NCBI GenBank assembly: GCA_951406725.2
Contig: OX597828.1
Coordinates: 29,450,001-29,514,000, forward strand
Direction: 5' to 3'
Origin: Octopus vulgaris
Lineage: Eukaryota
Length of the DNA: 64,000 bases
In this document: one piece after another, positions 5,203 through 62,070 of the stretch
Position numbering within the stretch: the first letter of the stretch is position 1
Layout of the letters: each line of letters opens with the position of its first letter
The notes under the pieces: generated by a model
What the model saw: only the letters and a program-made list of their open reading frames with translations
Databases searched by the model: none
Told to the model about the DNA's origin: nothing
Program-made: the position numbers and the translations under genes

Positions 5203-5704
5203 CTCTTAACTAATCGGCTGTCACTTACCTCTTAATCTCTTAACTAATTGGCTGTCTCTTACCTCTTAATCTCTTAATCGGTCGTCTCTCATCTTTTAAT
5301 CTCTTAACTAATCGGCTGTCTCTTACATCTTAATCTCTTAACTAATTTGCTGTCTCTTACCTCTTAATCTCTTAAGTAATCGGCTGTCTCTCACCTATTA
5401 ATCTCTTAACTAATGGGCTATCTCTTATTTCTTAATCTCTTAACTAATCGGTTGTCTCTTACCTCTTAATCTCTTAACTAATCGGTTGTCTCTCACCTCT
5501 TAATTTCTTAACTAATCGGTTGTCTCTCATCTTTTAATCTCTTAACTAGTCGGCTGTCTCTCACCTATTAATCTCTTAACTAATCGGTTGTCTCTCACCT
5601 CTTAATCTCTTAACTAATCGGTTGTCTCTCACCTCTTAATCTCTTAACTAATCGGTTATCTCTCACCTCTTAATCTCTTAACTAATCGGTTGTCTCTTAC
5701 CTCT
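5203..5704. repeat. 34-bp minisatellite, about 15 copies
   Basis: Unit ctcttaactaatcgg(c/t)tgtctct(t/c)acctcttaat with period 34 (e.g. 5211 to 5245). Confidence 0.95.
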
Positions 5705-6909
5705 TTATATAAATACAAACTAATTCTAACGGGATTCTATACAGTTTCCGTGTAATGAATTTCACTCACAAGTTAGGGGTCTACCCCAAGCTATAGAAAC
5801 TGACTATTGCACATGAAGCCGTGCAATGGGTTTGAACGCAAGACCTCGTGATTATGTAGCGAATTTCTTGACCATACTGCACCTACATATTAATTCACCT
5901 GGACACACAAACACGATGGCTTTCTATAATCTCTCTCTCTCATCTCCGTAGATTTACTTATTTATCTTCTAACCAGTGTAATCACTTCACCGTACTCCTC
6001 CATTAGCACAATCAATTATGCTCTTTACTCAATAAGTCTTCATTCAACTGGTGATTCGAAGCTTATGTCAATTTATAAATTAGAGTTTAAACACCAAATT
6101 AGGTTCCGTTAATTTCCAATCCATCATCGTCGTCTCCTCTCAGAAACAAACAGACAAATAAACAGTTATTTAACTTCTTGAAATATATAACGTTTCCAAT
6201 ATTTGCTGCTTATATTATATTCTAATTGGAAATTTGTGCATACGCGATGTTATAAAACTGAATAGGAAAATAATATATGATTTCTTTTGCGTACAAATAG
6301 CAAATGTAAAATGTGGGAAAATATAATGGTAACGTTATTTAGAAAAGCGACAAGCTGTAGTTGTAGGCGCGTAATCATTCGGATAGTCTTTAAGAAAGGA
6401 TTTACGTTCCTTCCACGCTAATGTTTAAAATGGCCATTTATCACGTCATCGCATTTCAGCCAATATTTATTACGTAAGAGTTATGGGAAAATAAAATAAC
6501 CGCCGATAACATTACTGACGTAGTTAAGATATAAAACACACATGTACCCAATAATCATGACTTTAAATGCAGGCGGCGTATGTTTGCGTGTGTTCTAAAC
6601 AAATGTTATGGTTTATAGTGTTTGTTGTGTTCGTCTCATTTGAAAATTAAGCATGTCATTGGTTGATATTTAAACAAGCGAAGGAGAAATATCAAATGCG
6701 AATGAGATTAAATTGCCAGAAAATCTAATTGATTTAAATGCAGATAGTTTACTATAATAAAATACATTAAATATATTATAATGGAAATCCGAAAGCATTA
6801 ATTTTCTTCACACAGATGCCTTCATTTCATTTATTCTATTTGGAAACGCATGAACATCATAACATCCAGTACTAATGTAATGTGTCAATAAAAGAGAATT
6901 GACGTCTCA

Positions 6910-7778: not shown

Positions 7779-7936
7779 GGTGTAGGAGTGGCTGTGTGGT
7801 AAGTAACTTACTTACGAACCACATGATTCCGGATTCAGTCCCACTGCGTGGTACCTTGGGCAAGTGTCTTCTACTATAGCCCCGGGTCGACCAAAGCCTT
7901 GTGAGTGCAGGTGGAAGCCGGAAACTGAAAGAAGCC
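7779..7936 (+). mobile_element. SINE family A, 5' half
   Basis: ggagtggctgtgtggtaag head, ggattcagtccc B-box-like motif, ccttgggcaagtgtctt core. Confidence 0.85.
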
Positions 7937-8100
7937 CTGGAAAATTGGGCGAAAACTGCCTGGAAAGTTCCAAGCATTTTCTAACTTCTTGGAAAATTGA
8001 TCAAAAACTTCCTGGAAAGTTCCATGGATTTCCCAACTTCCTGGGAAATTGGTCGAAAACTTCCTGGAAAATTCCAAGGATTTCCTATCTTCCTGGAAAA
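7936..8100. repeat. 52-bp tandem repeat, about 3.2 copies, rich in TTCCTGGAA and GGAAAGTTCC motifs
   Basis: GGAAA(G/A)TTCC recurs at 7962, 8014 and 8066 (period 52). Confidence 0.85.
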
Positions 8101-9013
8101 TAATTCGTGTAAGATATTTTTGTGAATAGGGGCGTTTTCAATTTTCGAGTTTTATTAGAGTTACTTCCCTTAGTTTATTTACTCTGTGTAGCTCGTTTTA
8201 GGATTTCATTAACTGTTGTAAGAATTTTATCTTGAGTCGTATTCCAACACGGCTTAAAAATAATTCCAGAGAAAGATGTCTTCAAAACTGAAGTAAATAA
8301 ATAGATAGAATCAATAATAAATAATACAGTATAAAAATAAATCAAAAACTTAGTCATCCGAATTTGTTCTTTATTCTTCATTTTAAATTTTTGTTTTAAA
8401 AGCTAAAATTACTGAGATTTCAGGACCGGCAGGTTATTAAAGGCAGATAACTTGCCATGAACAAGAGATCTGAAAGTGATCTTATTATACGAGATAGCTT
8501 ATGTAAATGTAGTAATCGATACATTCTAGCGATTAATAAATATCGATTTCCTTACACCAAGTTCAAGGACATTTTCCCTAGGAAAGTCTATAAAACAGAT
8601 TTAATGAATTCTATTATATTAGCGATGCTTGTCTATTAAGATCACTATAACTTCTCAGCTGCTCTGTTTCCTTTATGTAATCCCTGTCCCACGAGGCCTA
8701 ACTACAATTAAAGCAAGGTTCAAAGACGAATTAACAATTGCAAATACCAGAAATACGACGTGAACATTTCCAAAATGAAACTTCAATAACGTGTCAACGA
8801 TGATAACACTAAATATATCGGTGATATTTATGTCTTTCAGTGATTTGGGATAAAATGAGATTTCGGGTAAGATGGCAGGGGCAAAAGTGCACCCTGGAAG
8901 ACATTTATATTAGGTTTCACCAGCTGCTGACAATATGTGACTAGTAATATGAATGTGTGTATGTGTGTGTGCGCGTGCGTGCGTACATAGTATATATGTA
9001 TATATATATACAA

Positions 9014-14450: not shown

Positions 14451-15521
14451 AATTAACCCATTATTTATTATTTATTTTTTTGGAGGTGTAGTGTGTGTGC
14501 ATGTGTGTGTGTGTGTGTGTGGGGGGGGTTAAATCCACTGCTCCCTTTTGGTCACCCTATTATTGCCACACCTTTCTTTAAAGTCCTTGTTGATCTTTCC
14601 GCCGCCCACAGAAAGGCAGTACCACCCACTTTGGGAATCACTGGTTTATTCTATCGGCCCCGAAGCGACAACTCACCGGCATTTGAACTTCGAACATAAA
14701 GAGCCTGAATAAATACTACTTAGCCTTTTGTCCGGCGTTGAAGCGGTTTTGCAAGCTGGTCGCCCTACATAGGAAGCATGAGAGAGTACAAGTGTACCAT
14801 AGGAAAAAAAAGTGCTTCGTCGTCGTTACGTGGTGATCATACTGGCTATGCTTAAGGTGTGGCCATTTGTGTGGCGTTGGTGTCTGAGTTCAGTTCTTTT
14901 GACAGCAATGGTGAGTCATTGGATAGTAACGTTGGTTGTTTGTTTGGGGTTCTGTTGACCTGTCTTATTGTTACACTGACTTGAAGACTAAAAGAAACGA
15001 GCACAAAAGAACCTCGCAAAGAACGAAATATCGACGGCAATAAATAAAAAAAACATAAATAACTAAAGAAATAAAGAAAAGAAAAACGACAACAATAATA
15101 TAAGCAAATAAAGTGCTGCTGCAACAACATAACCACCATCAAAATCCCCACCACCACCACCACTCCCACAAACAACAACAACAACAGCCACAACAAATCT
15201 ATGAGGCCTGGCTGTGCGGTTAAGTAGCTCGCTTTGCAACCACATGGTTTCGGGTTCAGTCCCACTGCGTGACACCTTGGACAAGGGGAAAGTGTGTCTT
15301 CCTACAGTCCTGGGATGAGGTGGGGTGATACCAGCGACATTGATAACAACGATTATAGGAGCAGGTGTGGCTGAGTGGTAAGAAGCCTGCTTCCCAATCA
15401 CATGGTACCGCGTTCAGTTCCATAGCGTAACACCTTCAGCAAGAATCTCCTACTCTATCCTCGAGCCGACCAAACCCTTGTGAGTAGATTTGTTAGATGG
15501 AAGCTGAACTAATACCCAACC

Positions 15522-15979
15522 AAGTGTGGCATCCCACACGGGACAGTGCTACTGGGGTTTATAGCCCTAGGAAGACATCTCTTTGAGCTGGCTAACGAAA
15601 CACATTCTGTGTCCGATTCGTATTTGCGAGGGGAGGTCGTCGCTCCCATCCCTAGCTGTACGTGATACACACGGACTCGAGTTTCTGGGTGGTTTTTCTT
15701 CTTTTTCGCGATCAGCGACGGTTCGTCGCTGGAAAAAAACATAGTATTTTGCGAGTGGAGTGAGTTTTCATCACTAGCTGGTGATTAACACACGCTGAGG
15801 ACGGGTAACCACCCAGAAACTCGAGTCCGTGTGTATCACGTAAGGCTAGGGATGGGAACAATGACCTCCCCTCGCAAATGCTAATCAGACACAGAATATG
15901 TGTCGTTAGCCAGCTGGAAGAGATATCTTCCAAGTGCTATAAAATTCAGTAGCACTGTCCTGTATAGGACGCCACATTT
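15522..15979 (+). mobile_element. Hammerhead-bearing GC-rich repeat with an inverted partial copy (fold-back)
   Basis: Arms 15522-15694 and 15807-15979 are reverse complements with scattered mismatches; homologous sequence at 17.7-18.0 kb and 61.6-62.07 kb. Confidence 0.8.
15788..15834 (+). ncRNA. Minimal type I hammerhead ribozyme motif
   Basis: acacacg CTGAGGA cgggt-aacc-accca GAAA ctcgag TC cgtgtgt: 7-bp stem I, canonical core, stem II with a C-A mismatch at the closing pair, palindromic stem III, GUC cleavage triplet. Confidence 0.85.
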
Positions 15980-16193
15980 AGCTGGCAAATATATGTTACG
16001 ATTCCGTATTGCTACTGTTTATATCTCGCTCAGAACAAAAGCGCAATAGAGTACAATAAAACATTCGGACAGTTAGACGATACAAGACGGACAAGAGATG
16101 CAACAATTAGAAGGACAGGCAAAAAAGACGGGTCATTCGTAGCCTTCTTTCCTCAGTCAAGTCACAGAAGTCATGACCGATTCGGGCAGTTAC

Positions 16194-16232
<39 letters not shown>

Positions 16233-16234
16233 AT

Positions 16235-16450
16235 GTACCTCTGTAGCGTGTTTGTACCCCCACCACCACTTCACATCCAGTGTTGGTTTGTTTATGTCTC
16301 CGTAACGTAGCGGTTCGGCGAAAAAGACCGATAGAATATGTACGAAGCTTAAAGAAACTAAGTCCTGGGGTCGATTTGTTCGACTAAAGCCTTGAAGGTG
16401 ATGCTCCAGCATGACCGCAGTCTAATGACTGAAACAAGTAAATAATAAAA
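16235..16450 (+). mobile_element. SINE family A, 3' half
   Basis: cgtaacgtagcggttcggcgaaaaagaccgatagaat...ccagcatgaccgcagtctaatgactgaaac. Confidence 0.8.
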
Positions 16451-16819
16451 GATCAGCAAAGTATGACAAACAACAACTGTAACAACATCACCACGACGGC
16501 AACAACGGTAGAAGGAAACACAGCAGACATAGAATCTGCTAATGAAAATATCAACATGGACAACAAAAACACCGATAACTGCAAAAAAAAACAGCGGTTG
16601 TTAAAACCACAACATAAACTATGCGATAACAGGAATAACAAGAGCACTCAGAGAGCGCAAACCTCCACCATGGCAACACCAACGTCCTCTCAATGATTAA
16701 CCAGAGATGATTTTTGAAATGAGAATATCTGAAATAAACTCGAATGCTCTCACAAACGAAAATGCTAAAAATGAAACCGATCGCTCTGAAAAGAAGAAAA
16801 AAAAAAACAAGAAAAATAT

Positions 16820-17005
16820 ATTCCACAATCTTTGTTCGATACCGGATCGATCCTAAAATCTAACCAGTTCGTGCTAGTCACGAGGCCGAACATCCCTGAA
16901 AGTTTCATCCGAATCCATTAAGCGGTTCTTGAGATATCTTGTCCTCGGATACACAAACAAGCAAACACATTTGGAAACAATGCGTCCGCTTTCGCTAAGG
17001 TAATA
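16820..17005 (-). mobile_element. Fragment of a DINE/Helentron-associated (HINE-like) non-autonomous element
   Basis: ttattacc start, gtttg microsatellite remnant, ggattcggatgaaacttt motif resembling the interior of the 6.9-kb Helitron. Confidence 0.45.
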
Positions 17006-17784
17006 AATATAAAAAAAAAAAAATAAAAAAAAAACGAAAGACAACGACGGTAATACAGCGGCGATATTAAGAACAAAAGCATGGGAAAGCATTAAACTGC
17101 AATATTAAGTTAATCATCAATGATGTTAACTAAAAACAAAGCAAAGCAAAAAGAACCGCAACATCAGAAGAAACATTAAAACGAAGTCATAACATCAGCG
17201 ACAACAGCTGCAACATTCAATATAAATAAAATGCCATTAATTCTAACAACAGAAATTACCAACAAGAAAGCATTAACGACAACAACAACAACAACAACAA
17301 CAACAACGCAGTGGCTTGATAAGCTAGAAATAACAGTCGAACTTTTTTTAATATATCTTATATTTTTAAATAAAGATATTTTGGGTCACGTCATTCAAGA
17401 TATTCCTCAAGTGGCGGGATGGTCGCGGCTAGAATGTCTTTGATCTTGGATCAGCTCAGTCAGACTTTCTATTATAGGCACGAGACCTAAATTTTGAAAT
17501 AGGTGGTCAGTTGGTTCGATCGAAAAGGGATGAAAGGCAAAATTGACCTCGGCGGAATTCGAACTCAGGTTGATGAAATGTCGGTAAGCATCCCTTTTAG
17601 GGTCGATAAAATAAGTACCAGTGAAACACTGGGGTCGATGTTATTGATTTCCTTTCTTCCCCGAACTTTCTGGTATCGTACCAAAATTTATAACCAACAA
17701 CAAGGATGACCAGTGAATAAATTTCACTGTAAATTGATATATTTGCAAAGGCTTGGTAAGTATCATCGCTAGCGGGGACACGCT

Positions 17785-17829
17785 ACCTTGAACTGATGAC
17801 AGGCAATACCCAGAAACATGCATTTAGGT
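17785..17829 (+). ncRNA. Degenerate hammerhead motif, same family as 15.8 kb
   Basis: accttgaa CTGATGA caggcaataccca GAAA catg CA tttaggt; palindromic stem III; cleavage-site U mutated to C. Confidence 0.55.
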
Positions 17830-18736
17830 TGCTAGTCCTAGCTTGTGGCGGTGCTTGCCTCCCCTTTGCAAATATAAGGACACAGGAAATGTGTCAAAGC
17901 CGACAGGAAGCGTTGATGCTTCCTAGGGCTATATAGCGGTGGTGTAATTCCCTCTACGGGACTGTCACGTTATGTTGACTTTATACAACCACTCAATAAC
18001 GATTTCTTTTATTTTAAATCATAAAGGTTTCTTTTATTTTCTTAAGGTCTCTATTATTGCGTCTAATTAAAGAATTTGGATTTAGGCACACGGCCAGTAA
18101 TGATGAGGGAAGAGGGAGAATCGCTATCACCTACTTCTAGTATTTCACTGGTACTCTATTTGATCAACCCCCTAAAAGGTGAAAGGCAAAGTTGATCTTG
18201 GCGGAATTTGAACTCAGAATGTACAAATATCGCAAAACATTTTCTCCGACACGCTGAAGATTCTACCGGCTCGCTGTCTTATTGTGTCTAAATTATTCTT
18301 TCTGACTTTTGGTACAGAGCAAGAAATTTTGAGGGAAAGGGGAAATCCAGTATATGGACTCCAGTGTTCAATTGGTACTTATTTTATCGACCTATAAAGG
18401 CAAAGTTGACCTCGGCCTCATTTAACAAAGAAATACATCAGCTGCAGGCGAAAATTGCCCAGTAATACGTTAGCATTGCTAAGTCCTGATTTCAGCTTTT
18501 CACCTTCATCAGAAGCAAACAACCACTGGCACCAGCATGCTAGGTGAAAATTGGCTGATAATTGAAGTAGTAAACAGTGACTGAAAAAGTCAACGATGTC
18601 TCATTTAGAAAGCAAGCTGAATAGAAATTCATTATTACTGACAGGTTTTCTTAACACTATAGATGCTTTCCCGAAACAAATACCGCAGTATAGAAGGCTT
18701 TCAACAGTGTATGCTTCAAGTATATGCAGATCACTC

Positions 18737-61602: not shown

Positions 61603-62070
61603 CAGCTGGAGACGATGATCTCCTGGGGCTAAAAGCTACAGTAACACCCACCCTTAGTGGTTAGCCATATTGAGATGGCTAGTATACTTTACGGTGTCGA
61701 GCGGTTACTGTTTACATCTCGTTCAGAGATTTATTATTGCTTGCAGACAGTTTTTCGAAATCAGTGACAGTAGTTACTGGGAAAAACATTAAATAGATAT
61801 TTGCAAACAGGTCTCCCTTCATCGAAAACCGGTGATTACCGTACGTTGACAAGAGGCAAATACCTCGAAACTACAGTCTGTGCGTATCACTTAGGTTTAC
61901 GAGAGAGGGATGACCTCCCTTTGCAAATATCATAAGGGCACAGAAAGTGTACCTAAAGCCAGCTGGAGACGATGATCTCCTGGGGCTAAAAGCTACAGTA
62001 ATACCCACCCTTAGTGGTTAGCCATATTGAGATGGGGCTAAAAGCTATAGTAACTACTGAGATGGGGCTA
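61603..62070 (+). mobile_element. Retrozyme-like element: 357-bp unit with a 76-bp terminal direct repeat and one internal hammerhead
   Basis: 61603-61678 repeats at 61960-62035 (one mismatch); homologous to the 15.7-16.0 and 17.7-18.0 kb repeats. Confidence 0.7.
61840..61884 (+). ncRNA. Minimal type I hammerhead ribozyme motif with U3-A8 core
   Basis: cgtacg TTGACAA gagg-caaata-cctc GAAA ct-ac-ag TC tgtgcg; all stems pair (two G-U in stem I); GUC triplet. Confidence 0.8.

Follow-up and report, generated by a model that had tools for sequence, protein, structure and literature searches.

Non-LTR retrozymes are short, non-coding repeats that carry a type I hammerhead ribozyme. In mussels, the hammerhead repeats are 350-390 nt long, self-cleave, and form circles, and the axolotl units are 330/350 nt (Cervera and de la Pena 2020, PMC7229834). 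Type I motifs of metazoans are described as dimer hammerheads (PMC4209133; PMC6765202), and natural hammerheads with a U3-A8 pair are published (PMC3088659, PMC4209133). In Xenopus, eight of nine retrozyme dimers were without cleavage in vitro (preprint 10.64898/2026.07.22.740005). Penelope-like elements leave a characteristic insertion pattern (PMC8557442), which matches the tandem pieces, inverted pieces, and TA targets described below. LINEs of the Tx1 clade are target-specific, e.g., Tx1L inserts into Tx1D, Keno into U2 genes, and Tx1-Mar into Mariner-N4; for the clade as a whole, known targets are satellites, LTR elements, DNA transposons, and U2 genes (PMC4494074).

The window is the whole stretch of Octopus vulgaris DNA analyzed here, 64,000 nucleotides of contig OX597828.1. 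An earlier note on this window described three diverged copies of one structured RNA family with covarying pairs. That observation holds in part. The strings, the shared family, and the structure are found again, but copy 2 is broken and the three copies are separate subfamilies. The copies are read here, with good confidence, as subfamilies of one protein-free hammerhead repeat of ~357 nt, whose likely mode of spread is that of a non-autonomous Penelope-type retroelement, i.e., a non-LTR retrozyme.

The copies in the window and their family

Copy 1 is a direct piece at 15695-16034 on the forward strand (profile match 15695-16011, homology to 16034) and belongs to F1, the oldest subfamily. It contains an upstream hairpin at 15713-15731 (arms 15713-15719 and 15725-15731) and a type I hammerhead at 15780-15839, with the core CUGAGGA at 15795-15801 and G12-A14 at 15816-15818. 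Palindromic stem-loop III is located at 15819-15826, and cleavage is predicted after 15827 from the hammerhead consensus. The conserved downstream block (15863-15879) is the predicted 3' strand of an extended stem I, with its partner at ~15746-15755. F1 has a C3-G8 core and a C.A mismatch at 10.1/11.1; the mismatch in copy 1, compared with G-C in copy 3, was overlooked earlier. An inverted, 5'-truncated piece of copy 1 lies on the reverse strand at 15510-15694, is 86% identical to the direct piece, and has the form of a Penelope-type 5' inversion. A dispersed repeat at 15400-15508 abuts this inverted piece and has at least six more copies in the window (7822, 14104, 22880, 36177, 59321, and 60257). 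Minisatellites are also present in the window, at 5203-5705 (period 34, 15 copies) and 7936-8101 (period 52, 3 copies).

Copy 2 (17708-18003, forward strand) belongs to F2, the most distant of the three subfamilies. Its upstream hairpin is at 17711-17729 (arms 17711-17717 and 17723-17729) and its core at 17793-17799, both on the forward strand. A hammerhead had been noted in all three copies. This is correct for copies 1 and 3, but in copy 2 a deletion of 4 nt after 17822, around U16.1/N17, breaks it. The missing 4 nt are present in the other F2 copies compared. The G17 listed for F2 is an alignment artefact of a longer stem III; mostly C or A is found there. On either side of copy 2, at 17520-17640 and 18170-18260, lie two pieces of a SINE-like repeat that presumably resembles cephalopod tRNA-head SINEs. 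A further F2-like subfamily (L333:5851-7259) is 76% identical to F2, has a U4C core, and also carries an insertion of LINE family A, described below.

Copy 3 (61695-62035, forward strand) belongs to F3a and has a U3-A8 core, G10.1-C11.1, and a rearranged 3' end followed by a (TA)n run. It is preceded on the same strand by a partial tandem unit at 61603-61694, which is 98.7% identical to 61960-62035 at a period of 357. The remaining features are also on the forward strand: the upstream hairpin at 61762-61779 (arms 61762-61768 and 61773-61779), an empty 14-bp LINE target site (ATCG-N4-CYGGTG) at 61821-61834 with the LINE itself absent from the window, the type I hammerhead at 61831-61890 (core UUGACAA at 61846-61852, G12-A14 at 61867-61869), and stem-loop III at 61870-61877 with predicted cleavage after 61878. 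Copy 3 has private changes at 61873, where the stem III palindrome is broken, and at 61879. Read depth at both positions mostly shows the other letters.

On re-reading the sequence, all strings quoted in the earlier note are in place, and stems I and II of copies 1 and 3 are as written there. The proposed common family is borne out by profile E-values of 3e-64, 2e-50, and 6e-91 at the three places, far beyond chance. Scanned on both strands for the hammerhead pattern, the window gives exactly two matches, copies 1 and 3 (15795 and 61846). Both have the type I core N3-U4-G5-A6-N7-R8-A9, G12-A13-A14, A15.1-U16.1, and H17 with three stems. Most subfamily majorities have this core as well; window copy 2 does not, and U4C is found in two subfamilies. 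A comparison with the Rfam hammerhead models, as had been suggested, gives no match: nothing in the window reaches the gathering score, and no hammerhead family appears within 15400-18300 at E up to 10.

Genome-wide, the unit is 354-360 nt long (~357), and most self-comparisons give a period of 350-359. The exact pattern of the downstream block has 1,400 matches, compared with 0 for the control, and a core-side pattern has 1,591, compared with 2. The copy number is at least 1,400 in the 2.8 Gb searched. DNA searches with each window copy returned about 3,000 first-look candidates, of which the best 40 were scored. Homology is confined to the ~357-nt unit and to tandem or inverted pieces of it. 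Tandem pieces are found in 117 of 223 uncut insertions and an inverted piece in 97 of 223 (some loci were fetched twice), and the longest pure tandem array found has 10 units. (TA)4 adjoins 73 of 235 3' ends, compared with 10% of background positions. The unit thus has the marks of a non-LTR retrozyme, i.e., a non-coding unit within 150-450 nt, a type I hammerhead, and both tandem and dispersed copies. Its insertions have the structure of Penelope-type insertions, with partial tandems, inverted 5'-truncated pieces, and microsatellite targets.

No reading frame is present in the unit, so the RT and GIY-YIG frame of an autonomous Penelope element is lacking. Among 120 loci, no Penelope frame lies next to the unit except for one decayed fragment beyond a (TA)n run. 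Where 5' flanks are shared among 126 insertions, this mostly traces to refetched loci, unit ends, or LINE tails. The genome also has two Penelope-like families with many intact frames, of 781 aa and 775 aa (L151:1245-3590; L364, L365, L377), and the unit resembles neither their ends nor those of 30 GIY-YIG loci. The 781-aa family has an upstream frame of over 300 aa and, near its 3' end, a hammerhead-like motif of the U3-A8 type whose stem III is palindromic. The 775-aa family has no hammerhead-like motif within 1 kb behind its frame. The repeat sequence is also found in contigs of several sequencing runs, whose type (RNA) is guessed.

Predicted fold, covariation, and history of the core

When natural monomers are folded as circles, 54-65% of the sequence is paired, with z-scores of -3 to -9 for seven of eight F3-type units and one of three older units (25 shuffles each). 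Stem I extends as a long rod, both in the fold of the family alignment and in monomer folds. The 'ctccc.t.gcaaat' part of the downstream block is predicted, from folds and pair counts, to pair with an 'atttgc' tract that follows the upstream hairpin. The downstream block cctccc.t.gcaaat, previously listed as an element of its own, is therefore conserved but probably not separate. Further hairpins are predicted downstream of it. The interior of stem-loop III has lengths of 4, 6, and 8 and is self-complementary in nine of nine subfamily types, seven of them fully Watson-Crick (15/17 inner pairs). Stem III forms no stable hairpin in the predicted monomer, while self-duplexes of -4.8 to -14.9 kcal/mol are predicted in all types. 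A self-complementary stem III without a monomer hairpin points to hammerheads that act as dimers via this stem.

Selection on RNA structure in the source lineages, as the earlier note proposed, is supported. The three window copies represent different subfamilies, so these three sequences cannot themselves show covariation. The sample used here is composed of 233 core-covering copies, grouped by near-core motifs into 13 subfamilies (at least two rows are mislabelled), and 104 pairs, defined by the hammerhead consensus together with folds of F3-type units. Among the 13 subfamily majorities, pairing is kept in 71 of 142 changed pair states (null fraction 0.35), a count reached by 0/2000 partner shuffles. 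Double changes number 42 against a null mean of 17.4 and a maximum of 28, again reached by 0/2000. Pairing is kept in 13/21 states for the hammerhead helices alone (0/2000 shuffles), in 20/42 for the 3' hairpins (1/2000), and in 32/66 for the stem I rod (16/2000; 223/2000 without F2). The upstream hairpin, put forward as a second conserved structure, is found in all subfamilies for which data exist, yet taken by itself it does not covary significantly (5/7, 108/2000 shuffles), and the case does not rest on it. A count on 21 chosen copies agrees, with 88% paired, 13 pairs changed on both sides, and 7/500 shuffles, a result to be read with the relatedness of the copies in mind.

Tree-aware covariation gives a more restricted result. 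In an all-against-all test of 82 copies, where the earlier note had expected covariation, no pair of 68,635 reaches E<0.05. The top pair of that test, position 3 with 10.1 (E 0.27), reflects a shared branch and is not a base pair. Restricted to the 104 pairs, the test finds only two significant pairs, both in stem II (E 0.001 and 0.008). Most changes arose a single time, on a tree shaped like a ladder, and the power of the test is limited by this. The covariation is real, but it is expected for Penelope-type hammerheads. A small compensatory series that includes a wobble (A-U, G.U, and G-C) is seen in F2 (L062-L090) at stem I position 2.2/1.2.

The core is conserved more strongly than the rest of the unit. 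All 13 subfamily majorities have the same letter at G5, A6, A9, G12, A13, A14, A15.1, and U16.1, a constancy seen in 89 of 335 columns overall; three of these eight positions are required by the core-side search pattern and five are not. In single copies, core changes occur at 19/824, about half the rate elsewhere (1,342/27,639), so the decay of inserted copies may not be purely neutral.

The subfamilies form a ladder in the trees, also with the core columns removed, in the order F1, F6, F3c, F3b, F3a, F5, and F4. In approximately this order, the within-subfamily divergence declines (non-CpG medians 0.092, 0.075-0.085, 0.026-0.053, and 0.019-0.030). C3-G8 together with C.A at 10.1/11.1 is the state of the older subfamilies, and U4C is the majority in two, F3b among them. 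All 29 rows with U3 form one clade (support 94/88), and 25 of them have G-C at 10.1/11.1. The change from C3-G8 to U3-A8 was accompanied by a change from C.A to G-C at the base of stem II. The double change proposed at 3-8 did occur, but as a single event and not as statistical covariation (tree-aware E=0.66 among the 104 pairs). In F4b and F4c, position 17 is U17 and stem I contains a C.A mismatch.

U3.G8 has two origins, F3x within F3a and F4c at the tip of the ladder, and a joint clade is rejected (p-AU 6e-45). As a surviving intermediate between C3-G8 and U3-A8 it is rejected as well, because both U3.G8 groups nest inside U3-A8 subfamilies. Exact matches genome-wide number 295 for U3.G8 and 411 for Y3-A8. 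F3x accounts for 13 of the 100 U3.G8 matches listed, and C3.A8 for none of the 100 Y3-A8 matches listed. Among 233 copies, 197 have C-G or U-A at 3-8, 25 have U.G (two whole subfamilies), six have C.A, and five have another state; C3.A8 is the majority in none of the 13 subfamilies. The pair is therefore kept as Watson-Crick or wobble and is never fixed as C.A. A Watson-Crick 3-8 pair had been called required. With U3.G8 fixed independently in two subfamilies that spread, a strict Watson-Crick pair is not required for spreading. With a core that was retuned as the lineage evolved, pairing at 3-8, whether Watson-Crick or wobble, appears to suffice, perhaps with modest activity. The literature search found no report of spreading U3.G8 families, within an incomplete coverage of papers on 3-8 exchanges. 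The ladder is an ordered series of natural hammerhead cores, each of which has spread, including two independent U3.G8 lineages. It makes testable whether, and how much, ribozymes must cleave for an element to move.

A LINE inserted in the repeat

At two loci, a LINE is found between paired copies of the repeat. It has zinc knuckle, APE, RT, and zf-RVT domains, with the zinc knuckle in ORF1 and the other three in ORF2 (the frames are broken in the copy examined). No complete ORF2 is present in the copies examined, and the longest piece has 1,069 aa. The closest named relative of the protein is from Argonauta; other homologues are unnamed or hypothetical proteins. The LINE is classed as Tx1-like by its domains and targeting. 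It is absent from the window.

Searches with repeat-free 3' ends gave two families. In family A (best 30 of 244 candidates), the repeat directly follows the LINE at one fixed site in 26 of 30 loci by strict matching and in 30 of 30 on inspection; of the other four, one involves a diverged subfamily, two have deletions at the junction, and one has a second LINE in tandem behind the same target. Family A copies (L251:1199-6470; L334-L337; L340-L359) are ~5.3 kb long, mostly have a complete 5' end, have no poly(A) tail, and are 95-98% alike at their 3' ends. Family B (best 30 of 208 candidates) has 19 strict repeat junctions and one tandem insertion after the target; four others precede full U2 snRNA (Rfam), one precedes a 5' piece of U2, and five lie elsewhere. 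In some family B copies (L330-L332, G000:C3:20811000-20841000; L309, L312, L313, L316), the LINE runs straight into the first base of full-length U2 snRNA; these copies are in a local array, and the U2 start and the retrozyme target have their first bases in common. The junction pattern between LINE and repeat has 73 matches genome-wide, compared with 3 for controls. Six junctions of one type lie within 85 kb (G000:C12:28513680-28598051), which suggests a local array or duplication.

The target is a 14-bp site with four variable bases in the middle, located in the 5' strand of extended stem I just upstream of the hammerhead. Across 28 family A loci, the LINE 5' end is reached in 25, and the 14 bp are duplicated on both sides in 23, identically in 15. 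The flanking parts of the repeat belong to the same (19) or a neighboring (7) subfamily in 26 of 26 assignable loci. Together, the two-sided duplication and the matching flanks mean that the LINE inserts into existing repeat copies. With more than 20% of its copies flanked by one target and with target duplication, it is target-specific as defined in PMC4494074. After the duplication, the hammerhead on the downstream side is still complete.

The LINE preys, at a single site, on a retroelement that itself bears a ribozyme, and is in this sense a parasite of a parasite; the habit is possibly unreported, and the literature search found no paper on a hammerhead or Penelope target of Tx1-clade LINEs. 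An unlikely further possibility is that the LINE, which inserts 25 nt upstream of the core and duplicates the stem I arm, is more than a passenger and makes use of the complete host hammerhead that comes to lie behind its tail-less 3' end. The hammerhead would then cut the LINE read-through RNA and leave a target-matching sequence for priming. A combined account, in which the lineage is an ordered record of a core rewired under selection, the U3.G8 dimers are active, and the LINE uses the host hammerhead on read-through RNA, is likewise unlikely.

Explanations and comparison with known systems

Spreading as a non-LTR retrozyme would proceed as in related systems. A tandem copy of the repeat would be transcribed, and two hammerheads, joined by their palindromic stems III, would cut the transcript to unit-length pieces, which are probably circularized. 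A Penelope reverse transcriptase/GIY-YIG protein made elsewhere may then copy more than one unit into TA-rich DNA. Catalysis by the hammerheads is presumed here from their sequence. Selection acted on a small number of source copies, and the bulk of the genomic copies, window copy 2 among them, decay. Along the lineage the core was retuned in order, from C3-G8 with C.A through a U4C phase to U3-A8 with G-C, and then twice to U3.G8. Separately, a Tx1-like LINE takes the 14-bp stem I site as its target, sparing the downstream hammerhead. Counting against the retrozyme reading are the successful subfamilies with likely weakening changes, i.e., U4C, U3.G8, C.A at 10.1/11.1, and the stem I mismatch. 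The lack of an autonomous partner among the Penelope families compared, the few significant pairs in the tree-aware tests, the Xenopus dimers without cleavage, and the lower mutation rate of core positions in single copies also speak against it.

A possible but unlikely alternative is that the ribozyme is weak or dispensable in young subfamilies and that selection keeps a fold recognized by the reverse transcriptase, not catalysis. U3.G8, fixed twice and with its 295 exact matches, fits this explanation, as do the U4C majority in two subfamilies and U17 with the stem I C.A mismatch in F4b/F4c. Hammerhead-less Penelope clades spread well (PMC8557442), and most Xenopus dimers assayed were inactive (10.64898/2026.07.22.740005). 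It does not account well for G5, A6, A9, G12-A14, and A15.1-U16.1 fixed in 13 of 13 subfamilies, for C3.A8, which is never a subfamily state (6/233 single copies; 0/100 matches listed), or for a stem III palindrome that was rebuilt repeatedly. A further alternative is that 5'-truncated insertions of an autonomous Penelope element left the copies behind as its terminal repeats, and that no RNA element spreads by itself. No Penelope frame adjoins the unit in the 120 loci, bar the one decayed fragment, the 5' flanks common to 126 insertions have mostly the trivial sources given above, and pure tandem arrays reach 10 units, all of which makes this improbable, even though the insertion pattern is that of Penelope elements and Xenopus retrozymes are close to pseudo-LTRs (10.64898/2026.07.22.740005). 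With the best 40 of about 3,000 candidates scored per search, a rare full-length master could be missed.

Mobilization of the repeat by the Tx1-like LINE, or a LINE that carries the repeat as its own 3' end, is suggested by the joined 3' ends in 26/30 and 19/30 loci (best 30 of each family). It is largely refuted by the target duplication on both sides in 23 of 28 loci (identical in 15). The flanking parts also agree in subfamily, same or neighboring, in 26 of 26 assignable loci, while the LINE copies are 95-98% alike, and the great majority of repeat copies are without a LINE; this explanation is very improbable. A host non-coding RNA with a cellular job, with the three copies as paralogous genes, is scarcely plausible. 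Its sequence is present in several runs guessed to be RNA, but these are contigs of guessed type and silent on expression; thousands of copies are dispersed, truncated, and decaying, and window copies 2 and 3 have disabling or weakening private changes.

The LINE is like those of PMC4494074 in having two frames, one fixed site in a multicopy target, a target duplication, and occasional tandem insertions. Unlike those LINEs, one of the two families here is in addition found next to U2 snRNA copies, at their first base. Its hammerhead retrozyme target is not among the targets named in that paper, of which Fig. 3 includes unnamed 'satellites'. Non-autonomous Penelope derivatives (10.64898/2026.07.22.740005; Chlamys MRC1, PMC8557442) are likewise pseudo-LTR-like units with partial tandems, and have inverted 5' copies and microsatellite targets in common with the unit. 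Unlike for those derivatives, no matching autonomous family was found here; the preprint sampled no mollusc.

The hammerheads of Penelope elements (Cervera and de la Pena 2014, PMC4209133) also have a palindromic short helix III, predicted dimers, and many compensatory changes. U3-A8 is found there as well, in about 1,300 matches of Schistosoma Cercyon. In contrast to those hammerheads, the unit has no reading frame, a long rather than minimal stem I, and a stem II of 3-4 bp. U3.G8 subfamilies are present here, and no description of them was found in the available text of that paper. The Dolichopoda pDo500 satellite hammerhead (PMC2837043) has a conserved core and compensatory stem changes that were read as selection on the ribozyme; pDo500 is a satellite across species, whereas the lineage here is a dispersed retroelement within one genome.

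The closest systems are the metazoan retrozymes of PMC7229834. They share short non-coding units, tandem and dispersed, with a type I hammerhead, a highly self-paired predicted circle, and co-existence with Penelope elements. In axolotl, helix III of the motifs is weak and the ribozymes act as dimers; one motif has a mismatch at the base of stem II, likewise seen here. Circles and cleavage were demonstrated for the mussel repeats and are predicted for the unit here. Unlike those retrozymes, the unit has a subfamily ladder with core changes (U4C, U3-A8, U3.G8, and C.A/G-C at 10.1/11.1) and frequent 5' inversions. The element is of a known kind, and its ordered core series and targeting LINE set it apart as a variant.
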